From Lobosporangium transversale (Eukaryota): a DNA stretch of 64,000 bases. The stretch covers positions 186,001 through 250,000 of the forward strand of contig NW_019029015.1 of NCBI RefSeq assembly GCF_002105155.1, written 5' to 3'. Both the position numbers and the translations under genes were made by a program. Shown one piece after another: positions 9,462 through 64,000 of this stretch. The stretch's first letter is position 1; every line of letters starts with the position of its first letter. The notes below the pieces were generated by a model. The model was not told where the DNA came from. It saw only the letters and a list, made by a program, of their open reading frames with translations, and did no database searches.

Positions 9462-11346
9462 ACGCCATGAAGCACAGTGAAATGGCATTTTTTAAAGGTT
9501 CACTACAAGGAAAAGCCTTTCGTGTTATCTATCATCTTCAACGGATCCAGTGACACTTATTCGTGAGGATTCGGCCAATTCGGGATGAATATTGCTCAAG
9601 TCTTTCTGACACCTTCGTCAGAAAGAAATATCCATGCTCTTCACACAAGTAGCTCAATGAAAACCACGGTCGTTAGGGTTCTTGGGTAGCACTTACTATT
9701 ATTACTACTATTGTTCCCGATGGCTCTATTGAAGGCGATGAGGTTGCTGTTGTAGATACGGTTGTTATTGTTACTACTGTAGCTGCTATAGTTGCAGTAG
9801 CTGTGATAAATACCGTCGCTATTGTCGTTGTAGTTGGTGGAGCAACTCTGTCTTCTACTGCATCTGCAGCTGAAGACGCCTTCGAGCTTCAGGCGCACGT
9901 TCATCTTGCGGATTGTGACATATCAGTCATATGTAAGTAGTAAAGTAGTAATTTCACTTATCAGAGATTGTCCTTTACCCTACTTAAATCAATAGGAGCT
10001 GATCAATAAAGGGATGAACGTTTCTCATCCACTTTCCTATCCATATGATTCATATTGATCAATGAATTAACCTCTCATCCTAAGCAAAAAAAAAAAAAAA
10101 TTCACACGCATATACAAATCAACAATCGCAAAGCTTTATTTCTTTCCTTTGCGGTTGTTATTTCTACTGGGAGTAAGACGCAGATTATACGTATCTAAAA
10201 AAATGGCCACTAAGACATCGGAGAGACATAAAATGCACCGTTCTCGCTGATATCAATATTGAATATGTTATTAAGCTTTCCTGAGCAGCTTTTTGATTGA
10301 AACACTTACACAGAATAGCTATTCTTCTTTCGCGCACATAAAATAATAATAATAAAAAAACCAATATAAAAAGGACCCTTATTTTTTCTTTTCTCCCTTC
10401 ACACAATTTGTTATCCAATACCTTCATTATCGCCTCATTACCCATTCTTAATCCCCGATTATAAAAACTATTTAACTATTTACTATAACTTATAAAAATA
10501 TAGCCACTACACGACTAGGGCGAAGGCTCCTAAATATCTCTTATCAAGGTAATGGTGCATCTATCGTTATTTTATTGAGGAAAGTGCTTCATTCCTCTTT
10601 TTTTTGGGCGAAAGCATTGGTGACCAGTATCAGTAGCAACATCAAGTTCCTATCCATACTGTATTTGCTTCGATGCAATGCTCAATACGTTACACGCCGG
10701 AAAGGAAAGATATAGTTGTTGACATATATTCGCAACACGAAAACTCAGACTTCCTTGTTTGAGTTTCTTCCTCTCCCTGCCTGGAATGCAGTTATTGTGT
10801 AGTTGTTAACCATTACATTTTCTTTTTGGTATATAGTTAAAATGGGGATAAGAACCAACGCATCAATCGAATTAAAAGCACAGAACCAGGGATTGGCTAC
10901 TTCTTGAGCTTGCCAACTCCAACGAAACTCAGCGCAAAATATTTCGCTCTCGATTATCACAGCTTATTCCCGATGCCAGGGACAAATGCATCGTTGGCGA
11001 TTGGCACTATTGGAAGACTTTCTATTCCAATGACCACGAATGGACTCTGGCATTCACAAACAATAAATTATCGATCCAATGTACTAGACGTTGAAGGAAG
11101 GGTATGTCCAATCGATGTTTAAAAAATCTCAACAGATTTGACGGAGGCTCAACTGGATACCCTTCGGGTCCATTATTTTAGAGACAGTGGTAGGCCTGCT
11201 ACTTCGTAAGAGCAGTGTCCAGTTGTGGTCTCTAAACGTGAATTTTTAATTGAAAATTCCTATTAACGCCGCATTGCTCGTCAATAGAACGAAAGAAGCA
11301 AGAGCTTAATGCGAATAGACGGGTCACCAGGTCGTCCAACAATGGT

Positions 11347-11556
11347 CAGTGCTCCTATTCCATTCGAACATATCGAATTCGAATGGGTTTGAATGCATTC
11401 GAATCGAAAACGAATCATGGTAAGCTCGAATCGATTCGAATGACGCCTTAAGTTACAGATCTCTGGATATTTCGAGTCGTTCGATTACTTCGAGTATCGA
11501 ATTTAGATATCCATTCGAAAACGAATCGAATTCGAATGGTTCGAATAGAAGCACTG
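11347..11556. mobile_element. hAT-type MITE, 210 bp
   Basis: TIRs CAGTGCTCCTATTC / GAATAGAAGCACTG (13/14 match). Flanking 8-mers ACAATGGT and ACAAGGGT (7/8) are a TSD of hAT length. The interior is dense in TTCGAA/TCGA subterminal repeats. Confidence 0.85.
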
Positions 11557-11615
11557 ACAAGGGTCCGGACCTTGAAAAGGATACGCCAACCAACGATTCT
11601 GGCTTTGAACAGGAA

Positions 11616-12107
11616 ATGTCTCATGAATTAACAAGTCCTGACGATATCTCGACATCCAGTTCGGTGCCGCCCGCATCTTCCACTTCGAGTTTATCTTCTG
11701 GATCAACGTCTTCGACTTCGAGCGGTTCCAGTCTTTCGCCTATTGGGATACTACATTTACGAGCTTTCTTCAAAGAAATTTATTATCGTTACCTTGGCCC
11801 AAGACGGCTCACAGATTCTGGAACAGATGTGGGCGAGGCTATGTTTCCATACATTATGGATATGGTTAGAGAGTCCTTGCTACATTCCTTCATCATCGCA
11901 GGCAATCCAGACCCTGCACCATTTCTTTCTGCTGAAGATCAGACTTACAGTCGAGAATACATCCAGACATCAGACAATAATCATATCGAAGCCGCCCTCC
12001 TCGAGGATTGGATGCAAAACGAGTTATCACAGTATCTTCTGTCTCCATCAGACTTAGGCACATTGCTACGGAATGGGGAAAGTAATCTCCAAACCCCGCA
12101 CAAATAA
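11616..12107 (+). other. Hypothetical ORF / gene fragment of unknown function between the two MITE copies
   Basis: 163-aa open frame with a Ser-rich start and protein-like composition. No family recognised; neighbouring frames are broken. Confidence 0.3.
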
Positions 12108-12317
12108 GCGACAGCATTGACCGTGATACTTTCGATAATTTCCGGCTCTCAACTTATCCGGCCATTTTAAAAATATGGAGAGTTTATAACAGAAATCAAT
12201 TCAAACTTCCAGCGAGTCTTGATACGTCAAAGAGCTCTGGGAATTTACTTATGAGATTCTCACCGAAGACGAGTTCAACCATGGCGAAAAATCCTCCACA
12301 GCATCAAGCATCCGTAA

Positions 12318-12478
12318 CAGTGCTCCTATTCGAACCATACGAATTTGATTCGTTTTCGAATGGATATCTAAATTCGATACTCGAAGTAATCGAACGACTC
12401 GAAATATCCAGAGATCTGTAACTTAAGGCGTCATTCGATCATTCGAGCTTACCATGATTCGTTTTCGATTCGAATGCA
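12318..12478 (-). mobile_element. Truncated inverted second copy of the hAT-type MITE
   Basis: Begins CAGTGCTCCTATTCGAACC and is the reverse complement of 11394-11556. It is cut off exactly where the long inverted-repeat arm begins. Confidence 0.85.
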
Positions 12479-12742
12479 CGTATAATCTGCGTCTTACTCC
12501 CAGTAGAAATAACAACCGCAAAGGAAAGAAATAAAGCTTTGCGATTGTTGATTTGTATATGCGTGTGAATTTTTTTTTTTTTTTTTGCTATAGGATGAGA
12601 GGTTAATTCATTGATCAATATGAATCATATGGATAGGAAAGTGGATGAAAAACGTTCATCCCTTTATTGATCAGCTCCTACTGATTTTAAGTAAGATAAA
12701 GGACAACTTCTGATTGATAACTGATAATTGATAAGTGATCTA

Positions 12743-15585: not shown

Positions 15586-16712
15586 TTACAATTTCTGCAG
15601 CTCAGCACACTCCTTGCGTGCTTCGAACAATTCATTCGAATTGACTTTCAAGTGGCAGGCCAAATCATCTGCATTCGAAACATGGTAACCCAACTCGGAG
15701 AGTAAACCTCTTTGGATGTCATAGACCATCCCAATGACTTCGATGGACTGTCCACGTTCCCATGCGGCTCTAATGATGGGCGATTTAGCAACAGTGAGGA
15801 CTGAGTTCCTGCAGTTGATCTCGACCAAGGCACGACAGCGATCCTCTTGGTCCCTAATCTTCTCTAGATTGAGGAGGTGTTGATGTTTGACTTCCTTAAT
15901 ATTGGCAAGCCAATGATCGATCAATCCATAGGACTGGTCACCAAGTGCAGCAGCGACGCCACCGCAGCCATAATGACCACAGACGACCACGTGCTCAACC
16001 TTCAGGACATCGACAGCGTACTGCAATACAGAGAGACAGTTGAGATCTGTGCTAACAACGACATTGGCGATGTTACGGTGAGTGAAGACTTCACCAGGCG
16101 CTAAATAGATTGGGATTATAGCAGGAGTGGAAAATGATAGTAATTCAGTTGAGTGCAAGATAAGGTTAGTTGTGCCGATCAAGTCCTGGGATGCATAACT
16201 TTGATACACAGATACGCAAAATTCTTATCCCCAAAAAAAAAAAAAAAATTACCGAGTTGAAGCAATTCATTCTCAGGGACACGGGAATCAGAACATCCGA
16301 TCCAAAAGACCTTGGGTTGTTGGCCTTTTGAACCTTTTTCAAAGAAATCAGGCTGGCGCTCTCGGATGGCTTTGGACCATTTGCGATTGTTCTTCAACAG
16401 ACGAGCCAAACCATGTTCATGACCGATTGATGGGCTAGGACCTAATGTAACTGGTGACCTTGGACAGCAAGCATCATCATCACTATCATCATCCTCTTCC
16501 ATGTGGTGATGAGTATGTTCTGGACTACCATATTTATGAAGCAAGGCGCTAGATTGATGGTGATGACTATGATTGTGCTGGTGTTTCTTTTCAGGAACCT
16601 CTGCTGGAAATGTTGGCGATAGGGCTTCGACATGACCGGCGACATCAGGAACCTCAGCAACTACAATAGAGCGAGGGAATCCGTTGGGGATAGCGGCCGG
16701 TGATGATGACAT
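15586..16712 (-). CDS. Beta-class carbonic anhydrase (NCE103-like); intron 16252-16101
   Basis: Zn-ligand motifs WIGCSDSRVP, GEVFTHRNIAN and CGHYGCGG. His-rich N-terminal extension. Confidence 0.95.
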
Positions 16713-18440
16713 GACTTGACACTAGCAATCGGTGAAAGGAAGCTAAAAAATAAGAGTTCCAAAATTAGGAGACAAAGAGAGGGAAAGGAGAGAATGAAAG
16801 AGAAAGGAGGAAAAAAAAAAAAAAAGAAATGTGAACTGAGCCAAGGCTTCCTCTACATATTTGTACAAATATAAGACGTCCATAAGAGCTTTGAGAAGCG
16901 TGATTGTTTATATTACCTGAGGGGTAGGCTTACACAAATCTGGAACGGATGCTTTACACCTTTGTTTGATTGGATAAAAATGATAGGCTATAGAATAACG
17001 AAAAGATGAAGGAGTAAAATTAAGAGATAAAGAAATGAAAAGAAAAAAGAAAAGAAAAGAAGGTCAACGGTTGATTTATATAACAAATTTGAGCTATTTT
17101 ATTCTCGTAGATTACGTGGTTATCATTGCAAAAAAGAACAAGGTTCACCACCAATTGTTGGATCTCAATGCCTTCGAAGCCGAATGCTCAATTAGACTTT
17201 ATCCGGTCTGGACTAGACGTCGGCAATGATAAAAAAAAAAAAAAAAAAACTCCGCACATGCATGGAATCATGTATAAAGTAATCAATGAATAATGTAGCG
17301 TGTATCTCTTTGCATTTTTAAATAAATATATTAGATAAACCTTGCAATACTGTACGGTCGTTAAACTTTTTTGTTACCTAATGCATTAGTTGCAGGATTA
17401 GCATTGTGCATTGATTGTTTTATGTAGGTCAAGCAGAAAGTATTTTATCAGGGAAAATCTCGGACACTACGCAGCAGAATATCTATTTTGATCTATGAAG
17501 TGGCACACCGTACATGTAGCTAATGACAAGGTTTTTTTTTACCTGTGAAATTCATAGAATACAAGACAGAGTTTCCGTTCAATTAAACTCAAGCCTCAGG
17601 AACTTTAACATGATTATCATCGAACAAAATTTGACCGCGATTACAACCAGGTACATCCTTTGGATGCCCTGAAACATCAAAAGGAAAAATGGTGACCACA
17701 TGGCATGGGTACAACCACTTTGCAAGTTGTCGCTCAGTTGATTTAGACGTCAGCAAAAGGGTGTCCTGAGTTTTTGTGTCCAAATTATTTTGCTTTTAAG
17801 AAACAGTGTGGCACTTCATCAATTAGGAGCGAAATCTCTCTTACTTTGAGAAGAGTATTTAAAGACTTTGGTGAAAAATATTTTGCGGATAGATAGTAAC
17901 AGTAGAAAAAGTAAGTGAGAATAAGATGTGGGTCCACACACCACACCCATGGATTCTTTATTCATTTCTGGTAGAGGGGCTTGTACCAGATAACTACATA
18001 TCTATCTATAAGACAGCATGGGTTCTCATGTCAAAGATTTGTCGCGTCTTAGTGTGACGCTTTATTGCCACTAGTTTCTACTGCTAGTTTTATTTTTTTA
18101 TCGTACTATTTCAGTTGAAATTTCTCTAGTGTGTTTTTTTTAAGATCTTCCTTGTTTTTTAGTCGGACCATTATTAAATTGCATATTGAAATATGCAACA
18201 TTTGGATAATGGCGTGGTGTCTTTTGCCATTAGCAAATTATACACATATCGTGCGCCAAAAGTTTGGCCTACGGAATCACGTGGTTATGTTTAATTCCAC
18301 ACATGGAGTACAGCACAATCTTGGCCCTATTACATTACTGAAAACAGTCACGCAAATGGTCCTCGACGCCTGCACTCCGAACTAGACTAGTGTGTTTGCT
18401 GACACGCAGATATTGTCTACACTATGTAAAACTATGTGAG

Positions 18441-21400
18441 CTACATATGCTCAATGTGAATTCTCTTGCTACCTCTAGGCTCCTCTCCTTGCTCGGTCGG
18501 CGCCTGTCGCTTGATCGCTCTCTTTTCTCCGCTGTCCATGGAAATATTCTTATTTTTGTTTGGCACAAGGTAGGATGGTCGTTCTTGATAAAGTAGATGG
18601 CCTTGGACAATGTTGGCTATGTTATGCCCTGCCATGATGTCTCTGTGCATAAATGCCTTGCAGCTGCTGCAATACAGTCGACGGATCTCAACCTGACCAA
18701 CAAATTCTTGACAGATAGGACATTTTTTTGAGGTGTAGTATTCGTTTACGCCAACAACGATGTACCCAAAAGATCGGGCCTAATGAGGTAGGAGAGCAAG
18801 ATAAGTTACAATGTGACAACAACGGCAATATAAAGCAATGACCAACAGTTTTCCCATGGCTAGCTTGGCCGGCCACTGTTTCAACTACTACTTGAAACAG
18901 TATAGCCACCGGCCAAGTTTATTTTGTAATATTGAGCGAGTCCTTACCTTATTCACAAATACGATTGGAATGATTCGTGTAACGAAGACAGCCTGGTATT
19001 AGACGAAAACTTGCCAAGACCCACTCCGATCACCACCTTATCTCCTTCATTTACCTTCGCTCCAATTGACCCGCCAACTATCTTGAGCAGACTGTTGGCA
19101 ATCTTCTTGTATTCTTCAACCCGAGCCCTTTTCGCATCCCACCTATGTTTCTTGATGACATTGTTGCTGCTATAGAAGGAATCTAGGCCTTTCTCCACGT
19201 CTCTAAGCTTCTCAATGTAGTTTTTTATGCTTGCATCATTTCCACGAAGAGACGGTAGGCTACTCTCAATGTCACTAATGGACTGTGAACCGTAGACCGC
19301 TGCTGCCTTCCGCTGCTCCATCCAATGTCGGTATTTGAGAGTGGGCTGGTACGCTGCCTTCTGCTTGACGGCCAAGTTGTAAAATCTGGATGTCTGGGTC
19401 GCCGTGTTGGTGAGCTCACTACTTGGTAACAACGCGCTTGCTCCGACGATGAAAGACTGCCCTAAATCTAGACCTAAAATATTGATTTCTTCTGGCTTGC
19501 AGCCCAAAGGTCGGTGATATCTTGCTTAGTACTCACTACATTCCTTATCTCGGTCACGAAATAGTCTGTGCCGCCAAGAGTGGAATTGATCCTAAAAGGT
19601 AATCTTTCCTCGGGAAGTCGCCGATATTTTACCGCATTGAGTTCGTTCAATTTGAATGCTAGCAATTAGAGACGAAACCCATCAGTTCGAATTGACCCTC
19701 GTAAAATATAACCGCGCTTGTCGTAAGTCTGAGGCCCGGGCACGAAGTCATCCTCTCGAATGTATCGAATGTGCTCTCTCATCATGCTGAGTGGCATTAT
19801 GGAAGTTGTAGCCTTAAATCCTTTGTATTTCTTACGCTCTTCCTCTTCAAAGCCACCAATGTCAGTTAGCAGACTTGTAATGAGATACCCAGGGTCCCTG
19901 CCCGAGAGCCACACTCTAAGGTCGGCTTTCGAGGGTGTGCAAGTGAAGTCACCTCTGGCATAACTTGAAGTTCAGCTTTGAGTTCATTGTCTTGCCAAAA
20001 GATCTCAATCAGTTCTAACTCTGAGAGATTTATAAAGCCATCTTCAAAAGCGGACAACGGAGCAAGTTTTCGACTGTTATTGCAGCTTTTGTTCAGGCGA
20101 ACAAAGTTCTCTACTGCGGATATGCTAGGGTCGATACTGCTTGCTGTGTCTACAAGTAGCAGACCCTTGTTCTTGAGAGCTTCGATCTGTTATAAAAGGA
20201 ATGAAGATATTAGAATATCATTCGCCGTTATCTTACTCAATGATAAAACTTGAGTGGGGATGATAGCACTCATTAGAGCTAGGCGCGCATACCTTTTCAC
20301 AAAGTGCTTGTGCGCCCTCCTTATAATTCCTCCTTAACTCAACCTTGAGTTGCGTGGCAGTTGATCTCAGGACAACTGAGCCTGGATAGCGCATTCTTGT
20401 ATTGATCGAGCCAGCATCTGCCATAGCTGGCAAAAAGTCCTTGGCCTTATGGATGAAGTTGAGCACATGAGGATCCTTTACGTTGCCAGTTGGGGGCCTC
20501 TTGTTATAGATACACATGAGAAGTGATAGCAGGAAGGTCGTGTTGGCATCATTCGTTTCGTTCTCATCATTCTCTACATTATCCTTCTTCTCAGCTCCAT
20601 TGGGGCCTTCATTGCCGGCCACACTCTTGCTAAATATACGTGGGCAGATAAGATCGAGCAGTTTTCTGTCTGTGTTGCTGACATCGGTAGCTGAAAGCTG
20701 CTCAATGTACTGGCCAATAGCTCTCTCAAGTGCGCTTGGTCTTCGAAGCATGGCGAACGACTTCTTGGAGACAGGCTTTAATCTTGGATCTCAATTGGGG
20801 CTTATCAGTCAATATTCTATTCAGGTTGCCGTTGACCGCCCCAATGTCAAGAGTCCTAGTTGGGTGTTCATACTGCATAGCCCTAACCAAGTCTGTTTTA
20901 TCCATTCCGTCCACCGCTTTTTGTGGCTTTTTCGACTTTTCCTTCTCTTTCTTTTTCTTCTGCTTGCTAGAAGCAAGGGCATTCGTATTGGGATTGTCTT
21001 TGTATTTTTTCTGTTTGTATTGCTTCATGATCTCCGGAGGGACATGCTCGAGCTTTCGGGAGCGAGTTTTGAATGAACATCGCTCTCGGTACTTGCATTT
21101 TCTCCCTGAAGAGTGAGAAGGAGGCCATTGGACAGGAGCTCGGTCAACAGAGCGAAAGATATTGAATGTATCCGAGTGATTGTTCGACTGGGATGAACTA
21201 TCGACGGAACCAATGTCCATGTGAAGGCTGTAAAGGCGGGTTAGTTCGATGAAAATGTAGGGAAAAGGGATAAAAAGTAAGGCTAATGTCAGTGCATTAC
21301 CTCTTATCTATTCTCCTATTCATTTTTAATTGCTCGCGGATTGACGCCAGTCTCTGTAGCAGGCTTTCATGAGTCACGGGAACGTGTATGGAAGTCTGAA

Positions 21401-21536
21401 ATGCAACAGGAAGAGATTTTCTCTGTTACAGATCCACGAAAACCCTTATAGAGTCTTCAAAATATCCGTCAGCTACCTCCTTTCCCCTCACCTCATTGTG
21501 TCTCAAGTATTCCTGGATCATGTTCCTGGGATCTTT

Positions 21537-21572
<36 letters not shown>

Positions 21573-22374
21573 AAAGAGAGAGTTTGATGTGAAATTCAGT
21601 CTTTTAGAAGCGTGCAATCCTGTGGTATACCATTGCCTTCTCCAACCTGCTCCTTGACAATTCTGTAGTTGGTGACACTTCCAAGCCGGGAAATGTTGCT
21701 TGTGTAGTCGTTCTTGCTCACGATACACAGTACCGTCAATTGGGATCGTGTAATGTTTAGGGTGGTGAGTACGTCTGCAAGCTTGTACACTAAAATGTGA
21801 TCTCTTGAGATAGGGCGCCAAACCGTTGAGATATTCTTGTATGCGAGCATGTCACTGTCTCGGGAGACAACTACATCCTCGAGCTGGCAATCAGTCGCAT
21901 GTATTTCGCGAATGATTCTCGTGCTTCTTTTGACCAATGAAAGGCCATATCCAACGCCTTTATTACGGCAACGAACTGTTCCTTTCGGACTCGACTCTTG
22001 CTTTGCACGCGTTGGTATAGTTCATCGAGCCCTTGTTGGGCGTCCATCAATGCCTTGGCTCGTACTTCCTCTCGATATATATGAGTATGTTTTTTTTCCT
22101 CACAGGCGTCACCGTCAAGATACAGGATAAGGTTTTCTGGTGTTCCATACTTCCCCAGCTCTCTTTCCATGATCTTGTGGGCTGTATCGAGGGAATGATT
22201 GGAATATGCGTTTTGAATTATGGGATGTAAGGTTCCTAGGACATCGAACCTTATGTAGGCGTTGCAATTGAAGGGATTGAAAGGATTAGAGGTGGCGCAG
22301 ATTAACGAATGGTAGTGGAGAGTTGCCTCGTAGCCTGTCTTTAGAAGAAAAGACCAGAGGCCCTCGATTCCCAT
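18441..22374 (-). pseudogene. Copy A: XPG/FEN1-like PIN nuclease fused to a Fanzor/TnpB-like RuvC nuclease; spliced, disrupted by several frameshifts and stops
   Basis: PIN part: MGIEGLWSFL, RFDVLG, YLDG..EEK, VVSRDSD, H3TH-like CIVSKNDY...G. Fanzor part: SIRTDG, RuvC-I ILGLDLG, VVIGVGLG; after intron 18947-18780, ARSFGYIVVGVNEYYTSKKCPIC..YCSSC..MHRDIMAGHNIANI (RuvC-II E, zinc finger, RuvC-III D). Confidence 0.85.
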
Positions 22375-22748
22375 TGCTAAGAAGTGATATCAATATGGAT
22401 ATGGGAATATCGATGGAGCTGTTAGAGAGAAAGAGGTGTTGAAAAAAAATCGTGTGAATTTTTGCATGGTGTTTCACGTGGCATCTTTCCAAAAAAAAAA
22501 AAAAAAAAAAATTGACTGGTGTGAACGGGCATGGTGTTTTTTAACATAAAAATTGGCAAATACACTAGCGAGTCAGTGAAGCATCACACAAGGAACCGTC
22601 GGCGGCACTTGATGGTATTATCATTGTCAATATGAATATATATAGATATATATATATGCCTAGCGCGCTGCCGCACCGAAGCAAAACTTACCAGTGCTTG
22701 CTGCGTGTTCTTCTCTGCTCTGTTTGAAATCTTGATCATAACCTAGGC

Positions 22749-25380
22749 ATGGACCTCTTGACGATAAAATACATCTTACCATACTCGCTAAATTTTAATC
22801 CACATCAGTCGGTAGCCCCCTATCCCATTCCTAAGGAGATACCCGACCCTTTTACTACGGCTTTCACATTCAACGCGTTCCGTGAATTTTGGAGCCAAGA
22901 AAGACTTGCGTACCAATGGGCAGAGTGTTCGGAAAAGAACTCTCGATTCATTCTTGCCCACAAAGAGAATCTGGATAAACCACTTCCTACGCACAGTAAG
23001 GCATATCCTGGCCGCGGTCGTCCACGTGAATTCGATTGGACAATCAAGTACGTCTGTTGGCGCCAAGGTCCGAAAGAAGAGTTGACCATTCACCGGGAAT
23101 CAGTTGGTAATAAATGTCCGGTCTATATCAGGATTAAAAAACCTGTTGAGCAAGACTGGGTCATGGTGGAGTATTATAGACATCACAACCATGGAACTTC
23201 AACAAAGTCTAGGGTCGCTCTTCCTCTGAGCCCTAACGAGCGTAACTGGATGAAGTCAATGGTCTCCAGCAGCCATGACTGGAAATATATCAAGAATGAA
23301 CTGAGGCCAAGTGAAGAAGCTCTTCAGGCGGTAATGGTCGTCCAAGCATGTATTAAATATTTTTGCATTTACTTAGGCAATGACTAATATCCCATGACTT
23401 ACAGGTTGAGGCAGAGACGAAAAGTGTCCCTCCAAGCTTCCTTATCACTTACAACGATGCACGCGCAACGATTTATCGTAAACAGATAAAGGAATTTACA
23501 AGAGGTGATAGCGTTGTTACCAGTGTTGAGGGATGGATGAAGGAGATTCAAGCAAACGGGGGTAAAGGATAGTTTGCTAATGAAATTGATGTCAACGACC
23601 CTCAAAGCTATTTGATTGCCTGGTGTACGAAGTTCCAATTGGAGGTAAGGATTGCTCAGATCCGATATGATCCAACTGGCGTTAACGTTACTTATCGTCC
23701 TCGTTTCTGTCTTCAACAGGTCGCAAAGGACAATAGCTTGATAGCCTGCATGGACTCCACACGGAGAGTCGCTATGTCTCTGAGAGAAGATAAGGATAAA
23801 AAGGGCAATAAGGGAAAGGGCAAAAAGGATAGCAGTTCTTCAGCCTGCCTGTTTACGATCCTTGTCAAGGATCGAGTTTTGAGAAAGGCGTTCCAGTTGC
23901 CCATATGCTATGCAGCTCAGAGTCATCGTATGTTTGAGCATAGTCTAGTAACGATGTGAAGAAATTGTTTATCAAACTGAGACCATTGTATTATGTTCAA
24001 CAACAGGTTCCTCATAGAGAGATGGTTATCATGGCTCAGAACCGAGTGCGGTTTCAAGATGTCAAAGTTCATGGTAGACTGTTCTGTGACACAGAGTAAG
24101 GCCATTCAAGAGGTATTCCCTTCCGCATCAGTTTACTTCTGCCACTTTCATGTGCAGAAGTTATGGAAAGACCGCATGAGGGATGTGTTCAAGGTAAGAT
24201 ATATCATGTTAATGCTCAACCAAGATACCTTTGGCGATAATAACATTTTAACGCGACTCCATACTCTTTAGGAGCGATAGGTTTGCTTAAAGAAATGCGC
24301 ATTGCAAGGTCTGACGAAAAAGTTAATGACATCTGGAAAGGTATCAAGGACCAATTTTATGATCCGAGCAATGACAAAACAAGCCTCTTCTTTAACTATA
24401 TAGAAAAGAACTGGATCGCGAAAGAGAAGAGACCAAGATGGGTGCTTTTCCTGAGAGAGGTAAGATAAAGCACCAGTAAACGGCGGTATTAAATGACTTC
24501 TTCGACGAATTTCAATATCCGACATCCTAATACACCTAATAGGACTACCAACACGTAAATACACACAACCTTCTGGAGTCTTGGTTCAACGCTTTGAAGA
24601 CACATGCGCTGGAAGGGAAGCGCGGTTTACGAATTGATTTCCTCATATATAAATTGCAGGGACCCATTGACCAGGACTTCAGGACACAGTATTTCAAGGT
24701 CAAAAATTGAATACGACTCGCAACGCTTTCACAGTACGGCCAAGAAAGACTGGCGAGAGCAATGGCAGTAAGTCCCGTGGAGGCAAGGGCCATGGTATGC
24801 GAGAAGTTAGTCGAGAAAGAGGTATGTGTTGAAAATCGATAATATCAAAAGTTTGATTGTATATGGATAGGTTCTAATCTCTTTCGCTCTACAAAGTTCG
24901 CGGTAAAGTCGTCCGAAGAATCTGGAGTAGAGTATTCCGTTGCCGCGGATGTAGAGAGGGGCCTCCTTCAGTCATGTTCATGCCCCGACTATGTCCGACA
25001 GAAGATCCCTTGCAAACACATGTATTTAGTGTCAAGGATTTACGACGGCTTCGATGTTCAATATGCCGCTGCTCCTTCGCACATTGAACATTAGAACAGG
25101 CACTTAGAGTTCGACTTAGGGCCTCCTCTCGAGAGCTTTATCTCACCAGTTTTACTGCGTGAGCTGGATATGATGAGAACAAAAGAGAGGGAAGAAAAGA
25201 AGAGAAAAAGAGAAGAAGTCACCACCCAAGCGTTTGAAGAGTGTGAAGAAGAGCTTATGGTCCTGTGGAAGGAGCTGGGCCGTATAGTATATAATAGGAT
25301 ATGCGAGACTCAATAGCAGAACTGAGGAATGTAATCCGTACAATGACAGCGAGGGGTGTTCAAGCACCTGAACAAATTGA
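22749..25380 (+). mobile_element. Mutator/MULE-family DDE transposase, spliced and decayed (pseudogene)
   Basis: N-terminal FAR1/WRKY-GCM1-like finger (YVCWRQG..KCPVYI..HHNH). Catalytic motifs CMDST, FMVDCS...YFCHFHV and NLLESWFNALK. C-terminal SWIM finger CSCPDYVRQKIPCKHMY (~24975-25025). Frameshifts and stops present; no TIRs identified. Confidence 0.88.
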
Positions 25381-25582
25381 CTATAAAAAGTAACAAATCA
25401 GCTGATCTCTTTGTTTTTGGGCCATTGTGCTACACCCCACACATGCAATGACGTAGATATGGCCGGTGAATTTGAGTTTGATTCCGCCCACTGATAGAAA
25501 GTTCTCTCCTCTTCTATTGTATTGCATCTTGCCTCGCCAAACAACACGCTTCAACTTTCACCTTAATCATCCTCATTTCACC

Positions 25583-27230
25583 ATGGCTACTGTTCAGGAC
25601 CTATTTGCTCAAGGCAGCCACGCCTTTGCGGACGAGGACTACGAAGAAGCCCTCAACTTTTACACAAAGGCCATTGAGATCAATGCATCTCATGTCGAGA
25701 TTTTCTTAAAAAGGTACTTATTTTTATTGTAACTTATTTCAAGGCAAAATTCATACTAAAAAACGTACCTTGAACCATTCACACGCTAACCTACATAGGT
25801 CGACTACCTATCAAAAGCTGGGTAAGGACAAAGAGGCTTACGAAGATGCACTTAAGGCATTGGAGTTAATCAAGGAAAGGCCTTCAGTCGATGTCTCTGT
25901 TGAGGCAAAAGCTCAGCTTCGAAAGGGGTAGGTGTCAACGCCAGCAATAGCCTTCAAGTAACTCTTTACGACTTTGTTGTATCTATGCAAATACGTCGGT
26001 GTTAACTTTCATGATTTCTTTTTGTTTTGCTTTGTTTTGTTTTCTTTACCACAGAGTTGCAGCTTATCATATCCAGGACTATCAAACTGCAAAGGCAGCT
26101 TTGGAAGCATGCCACGCTCTCAGCCCTGAGCAGAGAACGTTGGCAAGCTGGATGCGTAAGGTTGACCAGGAGCTTGCCAAACAGCCTAAAACTATCCCAG
26201 CCCCAACTCCTACCTCTGCGTCTGCTGCCACCTCGACTGCGGCAGCTGCCCCTGCACCTACCCCCGCTCCCGCCCCTGTTCCCGCTCCAGCAGTGACCCC
26301 CGCTGTTCACCGTGTCAGGTAAAGTTTTATAAATAAAGCTGACTTTTTTGCAGACGCGTTTTGTGTTCTGAGCATAGTGATTATTAACACCTTGCTCAAA
26401 GATAAACTGACAAGTTGAATGAAATTACCACACTTTTATTTTAATAGACATGAGTGGTACCAAAATGATACCTATGTTACTATCAGTGTTTTCATCAAGA
26501 ATGTCAAGAAAGAGTCTGTTGACATCAATATCACTGAGAATGCTGTAAGGAACTTGTTTTTTTTTTTTTTTTTTTTTTTTTTAATTCTCTCATCTTGACT
26601 CAAAACTAACCATTAGCTTTGTTTCTTATTTGATGCTAGTTGTCGGTTTCTGTCAAGATGCCTACTGGCTCGGATTATTCTCTGGAGCTTGATCCATTGA
26701 GCCACGCTATTGTGCCCTCAGAGAGTAAATATGAGGTGCTGTCGACCAAGATTGAGATCCAGCTCAAGAAGGCGAGCTTTGGTATCAAGTGGGGAGCTCT
26801 TGAGGGAGATGATGTGAATGCAGGTTCAATGGCCAGTACCACAGCATCCGCTGTGCCAGCTTATCCTTCCTCATCCAAAAAGTCAAAGAACTGGGATGCT
26901 TTGGAGAAAGAGGCTGCCAAGGAGGAGGAAAAGGCTGATGGTGATAAGGCTTTGAACCAGCTCTTTGCTCAGATTTACAAGGATGCAGATGATAACACAA
27001 AGCGCGCCATGATGAAGAGCTTCACTGAAAGTAATGGAACCTGCTTGTCAACCAACTGGGACGAGGTCAGCAAGGGAACTGTTGAGACTCGTCCCCCTGA
27101 GGGCATGATCGCCAAAAAGGTAACTTAAAAAAAAAGAAAAGGCATTTTTTTCTTCAACGTTTCTTACAGCGCAGTATCTTATTTTCGTTTTATTTTATTA
27201 TCTTTTTCGGACTCTTAGTATGCGGCGTAA
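25583..27230 (+). CDS. SGT1: SGT1 co-chaperone (TPR-CS-SGS), multi-exon
   Basis: TPR N-terminus, CS domain (RHEWYQ..V) and SGS motif YPSSS..KNWD..RAMMKSFTESNGTCLSTNW. A probable last mini-exon at 27219-27230 gives ...KKYAA*. Confidence 0.94.
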
Positions 27231-55700: not shown

Positions 55701-56975
55701 CAATTTTATTACCAATGCATCACTTATCATGTCACTTTTGGTGTAAATGGATAGTGTATGTTCGTGTTTAATGGAAGCAAGGGAGAGTATGAGTACATTA
55801 CCAACGGCAGTGTATGCCTCCACCACGTCCCTCATGGTGTAAGGAAGAGAACAAGAATTGCTTTACGAAACGGAAGAACCCTTGCCATCGCTAATTTCGC
55901 CATCGACTAAGTTTGGAAGTCAATAGATTGTATTGTGATAGAGGCGTACTCATCTACCAACTGCGTTAATAGAGCGAAAGTGATGCCCCCACCCCTGCCG
56001 CTCTCTATCCAAAAATGAGCACTGCATATACTCATCTTTTCGAGCATGTCTCAAGAATTATCGGCCACTTAATAAAGATAGTCCTGCTACTTGAAGATGT
56101 ACAGTATGTGTTTGTATATGTCTATATGTTTATGTGCCATGTATTGGTGCTCTAGATGGCTTGATCTCACCAATAATACTTTTTTTTGCTTAGAGTGGTC
56201 GTGGGCTGCATTCTAGATACAGTGTCTCCAAATGCGCAGGAGTACTTCGAACATGCGCATCAAGGTCTGTTTGTTCACCCAGTATCATTGAAGGGTTTGA
56301 CGGGCGCCCATCCGCTTCGATCATCCGGGAGTATAAAGGCTGCCTGGTTAAGCATGGAAAGGCTCTTTTTTTTCTGCCATTCTCGCCGTAGAAAATGGCT
56401 TTTTTTCTAAGTCCAGACTAGGATATTGATTTGATTGAGAACGAACGAGGAATGAGAAAAAAGAATGGTATATTTCGCGTAAAAAGAGTCATCATGCTCT
56501 AATTAATCAATTAATTACCTTTAATTAAGATAGTGTGCTTAGAGATGGAAACGAGAATTGTGGAGTAGATTCAAATGTTAGAATAATAAAATGTTAGAAT
56601 AATAGATGGCAATGCAGATGATGGAAACAAGAGATGATTGGTAAAAATGAGGCTAGTGATTTGGGTGTGTGTGTAGGACCGATTAAAAAGCGCCATCCCG
56701 TTTGTCTAAAGGGTAAGTGGATAGTGATGGCTTCGTTCATAAAGGATGAACGATTGTAAAGAATACTCAATAGATATGGTATTTTCATTACAAGACAAAA
56801 TTCCTTTCACTTGATTGACATTCGACTCTTTTCTTCATGCTTGAACCTCGGCGGTCCTCCTGCATATGCGGTATTGATGTGAGTTTTTATGACACACTGT
56901 CCCGCATGTTTTAAATATTTAGGTGTTGCTTTAACATTCTGACCATTGTTGATAACGAGCTTCTGAATCTTAAGC

Positions 56976-57806
56976 TTGACGTGTATGTCGCCTGGGACCA
57001 TGAAACAGAGGAATGTGATATTGTCACTTTTCTCCGAAGTTTGGTCGGTTTCTCTTCAAGCAGGTTCCAGTAATATTATCGGCCATCCAATTATCAAGTC
57101 CCAGAAAATAATACTGGCCAGGATCAAAGATGAGCGCCATCAGCAGATAGCTAATGCAAGAAGCCTGTCCTATGAGGATTTCATGGAGTTGTGCGAGTTG
57201 CCTGAGCTCACACATGCAGATAAGTATGCAGTGTCTAAATATCGCTTGATGAAAGCCTACAATATAGCCACACCTGACATTATGACGCCTGAGTGGGTCA
57301 AGGATTATGATAATGAGAAAGAGAAAAGCGTTTACAAGAACCTGTGCTCTCTATACACCACTAATAGCACCACTTTGGAAGATAGACTAGAGGCTGTCCG
57401 ACAAAGGGAGGAGGCTAGACTAGGATTATGCCCAAAAACCAAAGTGCATCACAATCTTGAAGGCTCGCGATATGTCAAATTGCGATATGCAGCGGATATC
57501 ATGACATCATGTGGATTCACAGATGTATTCGCCAGTAATACTGTGCAAGCACAGACTCTCAAAGAAGGAATCAGAAGGATATGGGAAGGCGTTTTGAAGG
57601 AAATGGATAACACTTGCATAGCACTGGATAGAAAGAAACCAACGCACAATAATTGGATATTCAAACACCAACTAGGGTATCTAAACAATATTTTACATGA
57701 TGTGCTTGGTGTTAAGATTGTGGGAGTCAACAAACGCTGTGCGAAATATCATCTGGTGCACTACTCAAAGGTTGCTTCACTACGGCAGATGTCCTTTGAT
57801 ATTTAA
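56976..57806 (+). pseudogene. Intronless ORF resembling the C-terminal part of giant-virus-like (UL9-type) replication origin-binding helicases; N-terminus missing
   Basis: Pattern IANARSLSYEDF..L..ELTHADKYAVSKYRL..Y...PEWVKDY...VYKNL recalled from that family. No helicase motifs are in the fragment, so this is recognition by eye only. Confidence 0.45.
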
Positions 57807-58484: not shown

Positions 58485-61400
58485 CTACTGTTGTTGCCGG
58501 CTTGTCTCTCCCCCTCCTCCTGGACCCAGCAAAGGTCCTTTCGGTGGTCTTGATCCCTCTACTCCTCCTCCTCCTTCATCTGAAAATTTCCTTTTTCTGA
58601 TTCCTCCACTGCCACTTCCACCACTACCTCCCTCTCCTCCTCCTCCTTCCCCCGGGCTTAACAAAGGTTCCTTCGATGGTCTCGAACCCTCAACTTCCCC
58701 TCCTCCATCATCCGAGAATTTTCTTTTTGTGGTTCTGCCACTACCACTACCACTACCACTACCTCCTACCCCTGGACTCAACAAAAGCCCTTTCGGTGGT
58801 CTTGATCCCTCTACTCCTCCTCCTCCTCCTTCATCTGAAAATTTCCTTTTTGTGGTTCTGCTGCTACCACCACCACTGCCACCACTGCCACCACTACCTC
58901 CACCGCCGCCACTACCGCTAGAAGCTTGGCCTTGAGTTCCTCCGTCCGGCGGCATATATTTTGCAGGTCGTTTTTGCTCTCTTATCTGCGACTCACAGAC
59001 CCTTGCGATGTTCTCAGCACCAACAGCATCTCGATCAAAGTATGCTTTACAATTTCGACAGTACTTGGATCGAAAAGGAACATTCTCCAATATACTGTCA
59101 CAGTGAGGCCGTGGACACTTGGCAGATGTGTAGTATTCATGACAACCTGCAATGGGGTAGTCTAGAGATTTTGCCTGTTCGAGCCAGATTTAATACTCGT
59201 TAAAAAAGAGACTCAAAAATTGAATGTCATTGATCAAGGGATTTTTTTTTTACCTTTTCAACAAGCTTCTTCATCAATATCCCATGCTTCGATACTTGTC
59301 CTCGGTTTGTCTTGAATGATCCTAGTCCAATACAGATCACCACATTCGTATTGGCATCTCTTCTTCTTCCATTGCTTCCGCCCGCAAGCTTCAGAATTGC
59401 CTTGATCACATAATCAACGCATCCGTTCTGTGCTTTTCTATTATCCCAGCTATTCCGAACAAACCACCCGTCATTATAGAAATCGACAAGCGCCCTATAT
59501 ATAGTCTCCCTATTGTCGTCACTGGTCCCAGATCCACTGCTACTACTGGCCTCAACTCCACTGCTACTACCGGTCCCTGCTCCACTGCTACTACTGGCCC
59601 CAACCCCACTACCAGAGAAACTACCTCCAGTACTTGATGGAGCTTGATTTAGCGGCAAGCTCATATAAGCGAAATACTGTGTTAAAGTAGGCCTTGAGAA
59701 TGACGGAATATTGCTTTCAATCTCTGTAATTCCTCTTCTAAGCTTTCGCCTCTCTAGCTCGCCCTGAAACTTCTTGGATGGTTTGTAAAGGTACGCTCTA
59801 GAAATCCGGAGGATCTCACGTTCGTTAGGTTTCCTTGGATCCAACTTTGCAATTGTCATCGAGTACCTCTCGCCTGGATCGATCCCAATGATAATGGTAC
59901 TTTCGGGGGGAGGGCATGCTGCCTGGGTGTCATATTTAACTTCTACATTCTCGAGGAGACGGGATCTCTGCTTCCAGTTGATCTCACGCCGGGGACTGGG
60001 ACTCACCGGGGACAGTGGATTTGTGCTCGATGTACCTTTGTTGCGATTAGCAGTCATTTACATGGGTTTTTACTATAGCTAAGATTTTTACCCTTTTTAT
60101 TTAACGAAGATCCCCGGATCATAATAAACACATCTTTCTTTCGTTCTCGTTACTTATTATGATCCTGGCATATTTCAACCTTCTTCAGCTGCTTCTTCTC
60201 CCTCTTCGCCATCTAAGAATGGTTCATCAACTTCCAGCAAGTCAATATCGCTGATACCCAGCAAGATATCGTCATCTTCATTTCCGTCGTCGTCTCCATC
60301 ATCACCACCATCACCTGCACCATGGCCTGAAGACGAGGATCCCTGCTGAGCACTTGAAGAAGCCTGGACTGCTTGAGATCTTTGAGTATCCGAAGGTTGG
60401 GCAGCTTGCGAACCTCTACCTCTTTTTTGCTTCGATGTGTCAAAGGCAAGAAGTGTTAGGGCAAGGCCGTTTGTAAAGAACGATGTCCGTAGTTTCCTTC
60501 TAGGGCCATCATCAGATTGCAGTCCAACGTCCTTGTATCCTTTCAAGGAAAACAGCTCCTGCAACAATATCCCCTTGTAGTTAAGGATCTTGTCCTCTGC
60601 AGCCCCCTTGGTACTCATGTTTAGTTCCAACAATTGGACTATTTCCTCTCGAACTGTTGGATTAGACCATAATATATCCAGGAGACAGACTTCCGTTAAG
60701 CAGAGAGACCGAGGCAAGAAAGCAGACGTAGGGAAATCCAGATATTTTTTGGCAGTTGCATTTTGCTCAAAAAAGAATTGGATGGAACTTCTTCCATCGC
60801 CTGGAATATCTATGTCAAACTAGACATTATATTGAAGAAATGATTAGGAACATTTCTATAAACATATTATAAGATAACCTCAAAATATTATAATATTATA
60901 TTTACCTGCGCATTCCGATAGTGAGACCTTAGCGCTGCTTGAACAGGGACCATGACCATCCGAGACGACCTGCTGATCACCAAATCGGGATAGATCTGGT
61001 TTAAAGGACCAAGCCCTGTGTTTGCATAGAAGTTTTCGTATGCTTTGAGCTGGGACGGCTTGGCTACGTTCCCTTCGCCTTTTTTCTTCACTTCCCTGCT
61101 ATACCTAGATAATGGACTCATCACTCCGTGATACAACAACGCAGCAAGGCCGTAAATAAAGTCCCTGCTATCAAGAACTTCATCTAGGAGTTGTGGGAGA
61201 TCAGCTGGATTGGATGGCCCAGTGGTAAGCAGGTTATCGATCCACAAGGCGCAGGCCCAGAAAGCTCGAATCCGTGCCTCATTCAACATTTTAATAAATG
61301 ATTGAATGAGCCCTTGAATTGTTGCAGCAAGTTGCTCGGGATTGAGATTGGGATCGGAAGTAGAGTCCAGCTTGGCAACTACACATGTCTTCAACGTGCC

Positions 61401-62855
61401 CAGAGTTAATGCAACAGTGGGGTGGGCCCTCTTCAACCGTCGGTCCTCGGCAGTAGCCTCCTTCACTTTCCTGGTCTTATCAGTCTTTCTGATATACTTG
61501 GCCTTCCCTTTGTTCTTCTTTTTTTTCTTCTTTTCCTCCTTAACCTCCTCTTTGTCATCCTCTTTTTTTTCCTTTTCCTTTTTTTGGGGGACTTTCTTTG
61601 ACGGCTGGAGCTGACGGGACGGTCGTGTTGTTTGCAGTTGGTCAGGTCATATTTCTTAGGGGAAAGTTCCTTTTTCTGGGTAGGGAAAACAGGCCGATAG
61701 CGATTCGGCTTTGCGCGTTTAGGGATATAGAATCTAATTAGGAACAACAATGTCAAGGGTTAGATGACTTTTTTTTTTTTTTTTTTTTTTTTTTTGTATA
61801 TGCTTTGGAAAATGTTCATTTGAAGGAGCTTACCTGGGTTGAGGTTGATTATTTTTATTCTGGTACCTAGCAGATATCGCAGTCCTCATTCTATCATGGT
61901 AATGAAGGAATCTTTCAGCGGTTGGTTGCTGTGAAGCCTGGGTTTGGATCCTACCAAAGAAAACATTAATTGAATGGTCAAACTGGCCTTCTGCAGGAGT
62001 TCGACGGCTACGGGCATGGACCTCACGAACATATGATACCGTCAACTTTTCGGCATCAGTGTCAGTGAGCGCAGAGATAATCTCAGCATTTGTAGCAAGA
62101 CCAAAGGTTGGGATATTTGGGGTGTAATCGTTATCGGATATAACGCCATAGACCAGGAGTTGACTGTCCCTTGAAAACCCAAGGGCTTGCAGGACCTCTT
62201 GTTTCTCATAGAGTGCAAACATGTGATGGCGACGAGGGATTGGACGAAGAACTCTTTTTATAGAAGGATAGATGAGAAGGTCAGAGTCCCCAGACACAGC
62301 GATACTGGTTGGTGTACATTTGGCGGCAATACACACATCAGCCTCATTTCTACAATGGCAAATCACAAAGTTATTGTATCGACCGAATGGCGCCGCGAGC
62401 TCCCTCTTCTCGTTATGACTGAATGTGAAGAGCTGTCGAAGATTCTTTTTAATGGCAATCATATGGCTTCGAGATTCCCATTTGCCTTCATTGGACTTGG
62501 TTTCCATGTTGGCTATGAGCGTATCGAGTTTTGCATCCGCTGCTGTACGCTTAGCATCTCGGTCCCTATAGGCGCGCGTTTTTTCTTCGCAGCGAGGCCC
62601 ATCAATGTGTATCGTCACTGTGGCAAGAGGACCAAAGATTTTTCGAATGATACTAGCCATAGCATGGCCGCAGGCAGTGAAAGAACTCTGCCGGCTGAAT
62701 CTCCTTAGGATGATATTATGTATATCGCTGTGGAAAGTGCCAAGCAGATCCAGCTCAAAAGATGAATGGGGTTCAGCAGCAAGCTCATGTACATCAATCT
62801 CCTTTGGTGGCAGGTCTCTCCTTGAAAGGTATGAATAGAGTCCTTTAATACCCAT
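58485..62855 (-). CDS. Copy B: XPG/FEN1-like PIN nuclease fused to a Fanzor/TnpB-like RuvC nuclease, ~1320 aa, 5 exons (62855-61834, 61733-60906, 60819-60180, 60035-59254, 59174-58485); one apparent 1-nt frameshift in exon 2
   Basis: PIN part: MGIKGLYSYL, ELDLLG, HIDG..EEK, NEADV, SGDSD, GVISDNDY..G. Fanzor part: SFFTNG, RuvC-I IIGIDPG, VVICIGLG, RuvC-II CHEYYTSAKC, zinc finger CPRPHC..CRNC, RuvC-III FDRDAVGAENI. Exons sum to 3962 nt, one base short of an open frame. Confidence 0.85.
58500..58920 (-). repeat. Three ~40-aa coding repeats (KRKFSD-GGG-VEGSRP-K--LL-PG with Gly/Ser spacers) forming the C-terminal tail of copy B
   Basis: Visible in ORF 58485-59090 and in the DNA (CTTTCGGTGGTCTTGATCCCTCTACTCCTCC recurs). 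Confidence 0.9.
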
Positions 62856-63275: not shown

Positions 63276-64000
63276 CCTCGGTATGTGTATCTGTCTGAAC
63301 ACGTCCTAACTGACATCCTCTCGACAATCCTTCCAAGGCTGCAGTGTTTGAATGTGTACAGGGAACAAAAGAGGTCTAGATACAGGCTCTCTTTGTGACA
63401 TTGAAGGAGATCGCATGTTTCATGGCTATCGAGACAAGGTACCCCTACAGGCACAAGACAAAGGTATAACTCGGTTCAAACTCAAAGGAACGGTTTTGCC
63501 AATGGCCTTGTTCTGAATCCACTTGCCTATGACACAGTCCAGACGAAGAGACAGCAGCAGTCTGACGTAGATGAAGAAGATCTCAGCCAGGAATTGAAAC
63601 TTTCTCAAGGATTCCTTAACACGGCGTGTTTTAAAGGCAGCCGGTGAAGACCTGACAGATAAAGACTACGCAAACATAAACTGGAAGAGGAGCCCCAAAC
63701 TTCTTGAAAACGTTGGACTCATATTCCATGAGCTAGGGCGATGCTCATCTGCAAATACCACAACTACCGTCTAATGCGATCCTGGTATTGTTAATGCCCT
63801 TACGTTTTCTTCGCTAGACCGTCACAACCCTGACCTGCGTCAAACGGTGAAGGTGAGAAGTAGGCTCGTCAACAGCCTGTGTGCCTTATATGCGTTGCAC
63901 CAATGCTCACTGACAGGTTGAGTCCAAATTCGAGATACCAAAATAGCCTTCTTTGAATCCATGGGGAGGAAAGACACCAAGCCGGCAACAACAATAGGAT
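63276..64000 (+). pseudogene. Copy C: decayed internal fragment of the same Fanzor-like family, running to the window end
   Basis: Manual translation: PRYVYLSEHVLTDIL (copy B PRSLCLTEVCLLDIL); RFKLKGT/ANGLVLNPLAYDT (RRKLRTSFFTNGLALTLLAFDT); NINWKRSPKLLENV...V*CDPG...LDRHNPD (EINWKQRSRLLENV...IGIDPG...LDPRKPN). Stop at 63772 and frameshifts. Confidence 0.8.

Follow-up and report, generated by a model that had tools for sequence, protein, structure and literature searches.

The window analysed here is a stretch of 64,000 nucleotides from Lobosporangium transversale (contig NW_019029015.1, positions 186,001 to 250,000). It contains a Mutator-like element (MULE) of 7,131 bp (18306-25436, ±1), in which a gene for a Fanzor1 nuclease with an N-terminal PIN domain (PIN-Fanzor, copy A) and a gene for a MULE transposase diverge from a common spacer. 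The element sits between the divergent genes for carbonic anhydrase and SGT1, with the SGT1 ATG only 146 bp past its end. Judged by their reading frames, both genes of this copy are broken. We are highly confident of its composite nature, that is, of one MULE holding both transposase and PIN-Fanzor. The source fungus is intron-rich, and all species named among the matches of both genes belong to the Mortierellaceae. The analysis drew on collections of proteins, on metagenome contigs and on contigs assembled from public sequencing runs.

Genes and ends of the element

The minus-strand gene aligned near full length, by tblastn, with 1,186-amino-acid proteins such as P0006, and its PIN head and Fanzor tail are therefore taken as one spliced gene. 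The FEN1/Exo1-like PIN head covers about 21653-22374. Its XPG_I match was weak; the match of the gene to the Cas12f1-like TNB profile was above cut-off. The RuvC-I D, the RuvC-II E, the C4 zinc finger and the RuvC-III D are all readable in copy A, which fits the Fanzor1 motif D-X(125,275)-[TS]-[TS]-X-X-C4-X(5,50)-RD with the E just before the zinc finger; the letters found (GLDLGQ ... VNEYYTSKKC ... HRD) are conserved in relatives. The lesions comprise frame changes near 21897, 20728, 19965 and 19500 and stops at 21426 and 19666, and the other apparent breaks look like introns. One lesion removes the E-x-D segment of the PIN domain, leaving its active site incomplete (P0006 residues 152-168 have no counterpart). 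A word search with the PIN piece of copy A did not find longer relatives.

The plus-strand gene encodes a FAR1/WRKY-like N-terminus, a D-D-E set (DST, VDC and LES), a CHFH motif and a SWIM finger. The SWIM match reached 30.4 bits against a cut-off of 19.6, the FAR1 match stayed below cut-off (E 0.0016), and the pieces matched the MULE profile below cut-off only. An intact relative, P0080 (617 amino acids, D-D-E intact, without the introns of the window gene), passed the Pfam Transposase_mut cut-off (23.2 bits, cut-off 21), and DST, VDC, CHFH and LES align between the two. Decay was similar to that of the Fanzor gene: stops at 23570 and 24708, frame changes near 23883 and 25092, a loss of 25 nt at 25295, and a probable further break near 24272.

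These results bear out much of a first-pass annotation made from the letters of the window. It had named the two genes as PIN-Fanzor and Mutator-like transposase, as the profile matches and the alignments to P0006 and P0080 now do as well. It had placed their starts at ATG 22374 on the minus strand and ATG 22749 on the plus strand, and these are the points from which intact relatives align by tblastn. It had also called the two genes similarly decayed, which agrees with the lesions listed above. The 374 bp between the starts are likely a two-way promoter; spacers in relatives measure about 122 bp (L006) and about 245 bp (L011). The neighbours had also been named correctly, as seen from the Pro_CA and TPR-CS-SGS profile matches, and SGT1 was found spliced in sequencing run X5.

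The same annotation could find no terminal inverted repeats (TIRs) or target-site duplication (TSD) by eye. Both are present: imperfect TIRs of about 22 bp, which are improved in sister copies, flanked by a 9-bp TSD, CCACACATG. The true extent of the element thus replaces the block 18441-25380 proposed before, and the proposal that one MULE carries the PIN-Fanzor is upheld, as one TIR/TSD pair encloses both genes. We spotted these ends by eye, guided by a metagenome family (L010-L012, see below), and scored them afterwards. Every direct repeat of 8 or 9 bp shared by the two intergenic regions was ranked together with its adjacent inverted ends, and the 18306/25436 pair came first of 14 (8 bp) and first of 3 (9 bp); shuffles reached its score in 5/2000 and 14/2000 trials, respectively. 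TSD length is 8 or 9 bp according to the placement of a terminal C. The GCCCTA register of the window ends recurs in the ends of L012. The true ends were missing from the top pairs of an automatic repeat search of the window, which yielded no other convincing repeat pair. Coordinates are collected in Table 1.

Table 1. Features of the element and of the surrounding window
Feature	Coordinates	Strand	Basis or remark
Broken spliced PIN-Fanzor1 gene (copy A)	18441..22374	-	Profile matches; tblastn with intact relatives
Broken spliced MULE transposase gene	22749..25393	+	Profile matches; tblastn; intact relative P0080
Spacer between divergent starts, 374 bp	22375..22748		Sequence
Left TSD, CCACACATG	18297..18305		Best by adjacent inverted-end score among 3 nine-bp and 14 eight-bp pairs
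TIR at Fanzor 3' end, begins GAGT	18306..18329	+	Right end of sisters matches it better than own right end
TIR at transposase 3' end (end ±1)	25416..25436	-	3 nt present in sisters missing here
Right TSD, CCACACATG	25437..25445		Sequence
Candidate omegaRNA scaffold: long terminal stem and small hairpin, loop CAGCAA	18306..18400	-	Predicted fold
TGACG in host DNA, candidate target motif or target-adjacent motif	25449..25453	+	In register with flanks of other insertions
Host beta-carbonic anhydrase, left neighbour, outside element	15586..16712	-	Pro_CA, E 1.5e-41
Host SGT1, right neighbour, 3' end approximate	25583..27230	+	SGS (E 8e-35), CS and TPR
Copy B, second PIN-Fanzor, not part of element	58485..62855	-	About 30-43% amino-acid identity to copy A

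Linkage in relatives and sister copies

Twelve metagenome loci carry the transposase, four of which (L006, L009, L011 and L012) have more than 290 bp of upstream DNA. In all four, Fanzor-gene sequence lies on the opposite strand upstream of the transposase. The PIN start is about 245 bp off, head-to-head, in L009 and L011, where the transposase is 35% identical, and 122 bp from the transposase start in L006 (E 5e-7); in L012 the PIN half is deleted, and Fanzor sequence still stands opposite the transposase. The four linked loci represent two families, not four events. The remaining loci (L001, L002, L003, L004, L005, L007, L008 and L010; 0-284 bp upstream) were set aside as uninformative rather than counted as misses; the upstream DNA available in L002 (210 bp) and L003 (284 bp) does not include a PIN start.

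L010, L011 and L012, which form one family, have one common right end followed by three different flanks, and both genes place L012 as the outgroup. Positions 1-4806 of L012 make up a whole, internally deleted element that retains the transposase, the ends (imperfectly inverted) and the 3' half of the Fanzor gene, the PIN half having been lost at a short shared sequence. Two other arrangements were seen among these loci. In L010 (2640-3764), a member of another MULE family points the opposite way, and its 3' end is about 170 bp from the end of the element. In L008 (1838-6925), a Q-rich coiled-coil or leucine-rich-repeat-like gene, present twice in tandem, cuts the transposase short.

Two loci of Mortierella sp. 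GBAus27b (KAI8357054/KAI8357056 and KAI8362422/KAI8362424-5) hold the closest transposase (59%) two accessions away from a Fanzor that is also close (64%); the two loci encode identical proteins. MULE relatives thus do neighbour a Fanzor: head-to-head in the four metagenome loci, and two accessions apart in this genome. The accessions of 20 further MULE relatives contained no new adjacent Fanzor/MULE pair; the European Nucleotide Archive contigs of P0113 (a MULE) and P0021 (a Fanzor) are both 7,212 nt long, which is suggestive only. Searches of viral contigs and genome contigs found no relatives. Taken together, the Fanzor/MULE pairing is old and conserved, and not obligatory.

Sister copies were sought in contigs from four of the seven public sequencing runs listed, compared over 22700-26000. 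In runs X2 and X3, depth was 28-186 over the transposase versus 7-8 on the SGT1 flank. Three contigs in each of these runs depart from the window at 25424 into another flank, and with three extra bases their right TIR becomes nearly identical to the left TIR. Dispersed copies with a common end and different flanks are thus present in Lobosporangium transversale. Contigs of both runs also match 25378-26000 without difference. In the interior, all nine contigs at 24708 read G and so have no stop there, and the 23883 frameshift is absent from one X3 contig, which indicates that better-preserved sisters exist. Because such contigs merge near-identical copies, some lesions may be assembly errors.

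The other two runs differ in nature. Run X5 is RNA, as judged by the spliced SGT1 joint, and has 3' pieces of the transposase, mostly of diverged copies. One of them (record 12) is a 3' piece of about 83% identity to 24575-25130 with a contig depth of 1,673, versus 810 for the SGT1 contig, depths that tell neither expression level nor strand. Run X7 looks like a bisulfite library: over the same interval nearly all its changes are C>T or A/G, with 35 C>T against at most 10 of any other change, and the flank is uncovered. For these reasons X7 was left out of the comparison. Runs of this kind could reveal methylation of the element.

The layout might also have arisen from two independent insertions, of a non-autonomous PIN-Fanzor element and of a MULE, into one promoter region, with the TIR/TSD pair a product of chance. 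PIN-Fanzors and these MULEs do also occur apart, and promoters attract transposons. The enclosure of both genes by one TSD pair, the lack of any other convincing repeat pair, the right end confirmed by sisters and a layout conserved down to 35% identity have, however, largely refuted this explanation, to which we give hardly any credence.

Catalytic residues, candidate guide RNA and a proposed homing cycle

The intact relative P0006 was modelled with AlphaFold from 29 sequences (predicted local distance difference test 73, predicted template modelling score 0.57). The top five PDB matches of the model in Foldseek were SpuFz and GtFz, followed by human Exo1 and FEN1 (E 1.8e-10 for SpuFz and 1.1e-8 for Exo1), so that P0006 is predicted to combine a Fanzor1 fold with a FEN1/Exo1-like fold. 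Counting the rows of the 29-sequence alignment that cover each position, the RuvC-I D was found in 29/29, the RuvC-II E in 18/19 and the RuvC-III D in 18/18, and six of the eight acidic PIN positions were invariant, the other two nearly so. With catalytic residues near-invariant among relatives, both active sites look to be under selection in the family.

The first-pass annotation had suggested that the PIN-Fanzor might serve the MULE as a homing or maintenance accessory. Within the same composite element, it could instead act as an RNA-guided binder or an anti-silencing accessory, like mudrB or VANC, with no homing at all. Such roles are known for the second open reading frames (ORFs) that other MULEs carry (PMC6446971), and a variable 9-bp TSD would make for an awkward geometry of guide and target-adjacent motif (TAM). 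We consider this improbable, given that almost every relative in which these positions are covered retains the zinc finger and the three RuvC residues D, E and D.

At the Fanzor-side end of the element, the last 75 nt fold, by prediction, into a long stem closed by the element's final base (z -3.8, 0/500 shuffles). The transposase-side ends gave z values of -0.3 to +1.1; the Fanzor-side end alone folds better than shuffles. The hairpin with the CAGCAA loop is common to L012, with one C-G/U-A exchange, but stands at another distance from the end. A consensus fold of the two sequences (window and L012) was too weak to count, and an Rfam search of the Fanzor-side end gave no match. On the strength of the predicted fold, we regard this end as a candidate for encoding an omegaRNA.

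A short motif was found in the host DNA beyond the opposite end. TGA(C/G)G stands at +12 from the transposase-side end in L010, L011 and L012 and at +13 from 25436 in the window. Random draws reached this agreement in 196/200000 cases for three flanks and in 0/200000 for four flanks with a free shift of 1 nt. The sister flank, seen afterwards, has TGA at the position found in the window (background 2% per position). GTCAC also occurs inside the Fanzor-side end. WRKY domains prefer TGAC. Since GTCAC recurs in this end and in the TIRs of Mucorales MuDR-type elements, the flank motif would most simply be read as a site in the target DNA that the transposase binds through its WRKY/FAR1-like domain. 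A literature search on Mutator target preference with TGACG returned nothing relevant among the matches listed. Read on the Fanzor strand, the flank motif becomes TCAYN and adjoins the duplicated bases; it is close to ATN, the TAM of PpFz1 (PMC11423790). If TCAYN were the TAM, the guide would need to start with the TSD.

We propose, with moderate confidence, that in intact relatives the Fanzor would cut the site emptied by excision and that repair would copy the element back. The two-way promoter would drive both transposase and Fanzor. The transposase would excise the element, mostly precisely, as Muta1 does (excision about 90% precise; PMC5225508), and precise excision would rebuild the empty site. 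Transcription of the Fanzor gene that continues across the structured end would yield the omegaRNA, with the TSD, the host DNA beyond it, or both as guide, and the Fanzor would then cut the empty site and not the filled one. At the break, the PIN head would trim 5' ends or flaps and so favour homologous repair with a filled chromatid or nucleus as template. Finally, the transposase would insert at a set spacing from TGA(C/G)G, and TCAYN on the Fanzor strand could be the TAM.

Several observations weigh against this proposal. Eight of the 12 metagenome loci have too little upstream DNA to show the layout. The link in GBAus27b is one of accession order only and could reflect a segmental duplication, and its pairs make up 2/8 MULE loci and 2/6 Fanzor loci among the matches listed. 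In the run contigs, carriage of a Fanzor by the sister transposases is not visible; no empty site was seen in the four runs, as the SGT1 junction of the window is present in both X2 and X3. Copy B, the second PIN-Fanzor, has no MULE within 1.1 kb upstream. The omegaRNA is a matter of fold only: longer windows weaken it (z -2.0 at 100 nt, -0.6 at 140 nt), L012 gives a z of about -1.9, and the 75-nt window was picked after the fold had been seen. The flank motif comes from five sites, was recognized post hoc in four of them, and is off by 1 nt in register between families. In solved Fanzor1 complexes, moreover, the 3' TSD is scaffold and not guide (PMC13565253), which misfits a TAM made of TCAYN.

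The composite element could also use its PIN domain in transposition or RNA processing, to open or trim hairpins and flaps that arise in excision and in the filling of TSD gaps, or to trim the omegaRNA, with the Fanzor acting as elsewhere. Hairpins are left behind when a MULE excises, and its transposase does not open them (PMC5499845); nucleases of the FEN1 family act on flaps and gaps, as textbooks describe. Yet PIN is fused to the Fanzor and not to the transposase, copy B has such a fusion with no MULE next to it, and L012 has lost the PIN half while retaining ends and transposase. We therefore judge this explanation unlikely. The homing proposal can also be extended, which we do only tentatively and with some doubt: autonomous Mutators of the Mortierellaceae might be a cut-paste-and-home machine, in which TGA(C/G)G decides site choice, the same motif is the TAM in spite of a variable 9-bp TSD, and Exo1/FEN1-like resection of the RNA-guided break forces homologous copying.

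Part of the reason why the role of Fanzors is open lies in the best-studied ones (Spu-1 and the Mucorales MuDR types), whose elements have no transposase. The present element joins transposase, Fanzor, ends and candidate guide RNA in one unit, and better-preserved relatives exist (P0080, P0006 and the L010-L012 family), which makes transposon-restoring homing testable in yeast. The element further offers a view of the means by which an RNA-guided nuclease handles a TSD that is both long and variable. It also provides a natural fusion of a Fanzor with a 5' nuclease, which may bias repair towards homologous recombination; if so, the fused nuclease-exonuclease would be a natural editor. In summary, the element is a real, well-bounded composite MULE; this copy is dead, and its family stands as a variant among the Fanzor-carrying DNA transposons.

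Other window features and known systems

Copy B is apparently better preserved and has a C-terminal tandem of KRK repeats resembling nuclear localization signals. A search for TIRs and TSDs around it returned no pair that stood out. Just upstream, on the opposite strand (63400-64000, plus), lies a decayed piece of a B-type Fanzor covering the RuvC-I region (E 1.7e-7). Downstream, an open frame of 279 codons (56967-57806, plus) has no Pfam match; we take it to resemble the tail of origin-binding helicase-like proteins. Elsewhere in the window, an inverted repeat of 237 bp at 96% identity (9960-10192 and 12478-12714), with a second arm at 11394-11556 (97%), possibly marks another TIR element at 9960-12714.

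The first-pass annotation had treated Fanzors as established cargo of diverse DNA transposons, MuDR-type ones included. MuDR-type Fanzor elements do exist; those of Bao and Jurka (2013) are stated to encode no transposase (PMC3627910), and the two-gene MULE form is therefore less established than had been implied. The element in the window resembles the Mucorales MuDR-type Fanzor1 elements ROr-4 and PBl-3 as well as MCi-4 in its origin from early-diverging fungi, in short imperfect TIRs (31-42 bp in theirs) and in a 9-bp TSD. Their Fanzor, of about 1,170-1,250 amino acids, is similar in size to the relatives found here; the 3' TIRs of ROr-4 and PBl-3 begin with GAGT, as does the Fanzor-side TIR; and GTCAC some 30-45 nt inside the end is common to both groups (PMC3627910). 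Unlike these three, the window element has a transposase head-to-head inside the same TIRs. Neither PIN fusion nor flank motif is reported for them in the descriptions by which they were compared (PMC3627910).

Literature searches found no paper evidently on a PIN-Fanzor fusion and none joining Fanzor with XPG or Fanzor1 with a MULE, and broader searches gave nothing relevant among the matches listed; Repbase, most journals on subscription, the Saito and Jiang supplements and Yoon 2023 lay beyond the search and could hold a prior description. Jiang et al. give Crypton and Mariner/Tc1 as examples of autonomous Fanzor carriers (PMC10530073).

As in SpuFz1, GtFz1 and PpFz1, the RuvC domain is rearranged, with the E just before the zinc finger, and the 75-nt 3' end is predicted to be structured (PMC10432273, PMC11423790). 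Unlike these three, to which identity is 12-13%, the relatives here have an extra N-terminal FEN1/Exo1-like domain. Spu-1 elements differ from the window element in being without transposase and in a TA duplication inside a CATA TAM (PMC10432273). In relatives, the PIN head has the predicted fold and the conserved acidic metal-binding residues of FEN1/Exo1/XPG 5' nucleases; unlike these enzymes it is fused to a Fanzor inside a transposon, and its subfamily may be Exo1 or FEN1.

Like MULE-Mucorales, Mutyl and Muta1, the element combines a DDE transposase with CxxH and SWIM, a TSD in the range of 8-11 bp and short TIRs (PMC6446971, PMC5225508). An antisense second ORF is known from Mutyl (PMC6446971); here that second ORF is a Fanzor. 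Muta1 is described as without target sequence preference (PMC5225508), whereas the five flanks considered here share a motif. The pairing of a transposase with an RNA-guided nuclease recalls TnpA and TnpB homing in IS200/IS605, from which we borrowed TAM-matched target preference as a model (PMC13565253). Unlike IS200/IS605, with its scarless HUH mechanism, the present element is of the DDE cut-and-paste type, has a long variable TSD and carries eukaryotic spliced genes (PMC13565253).

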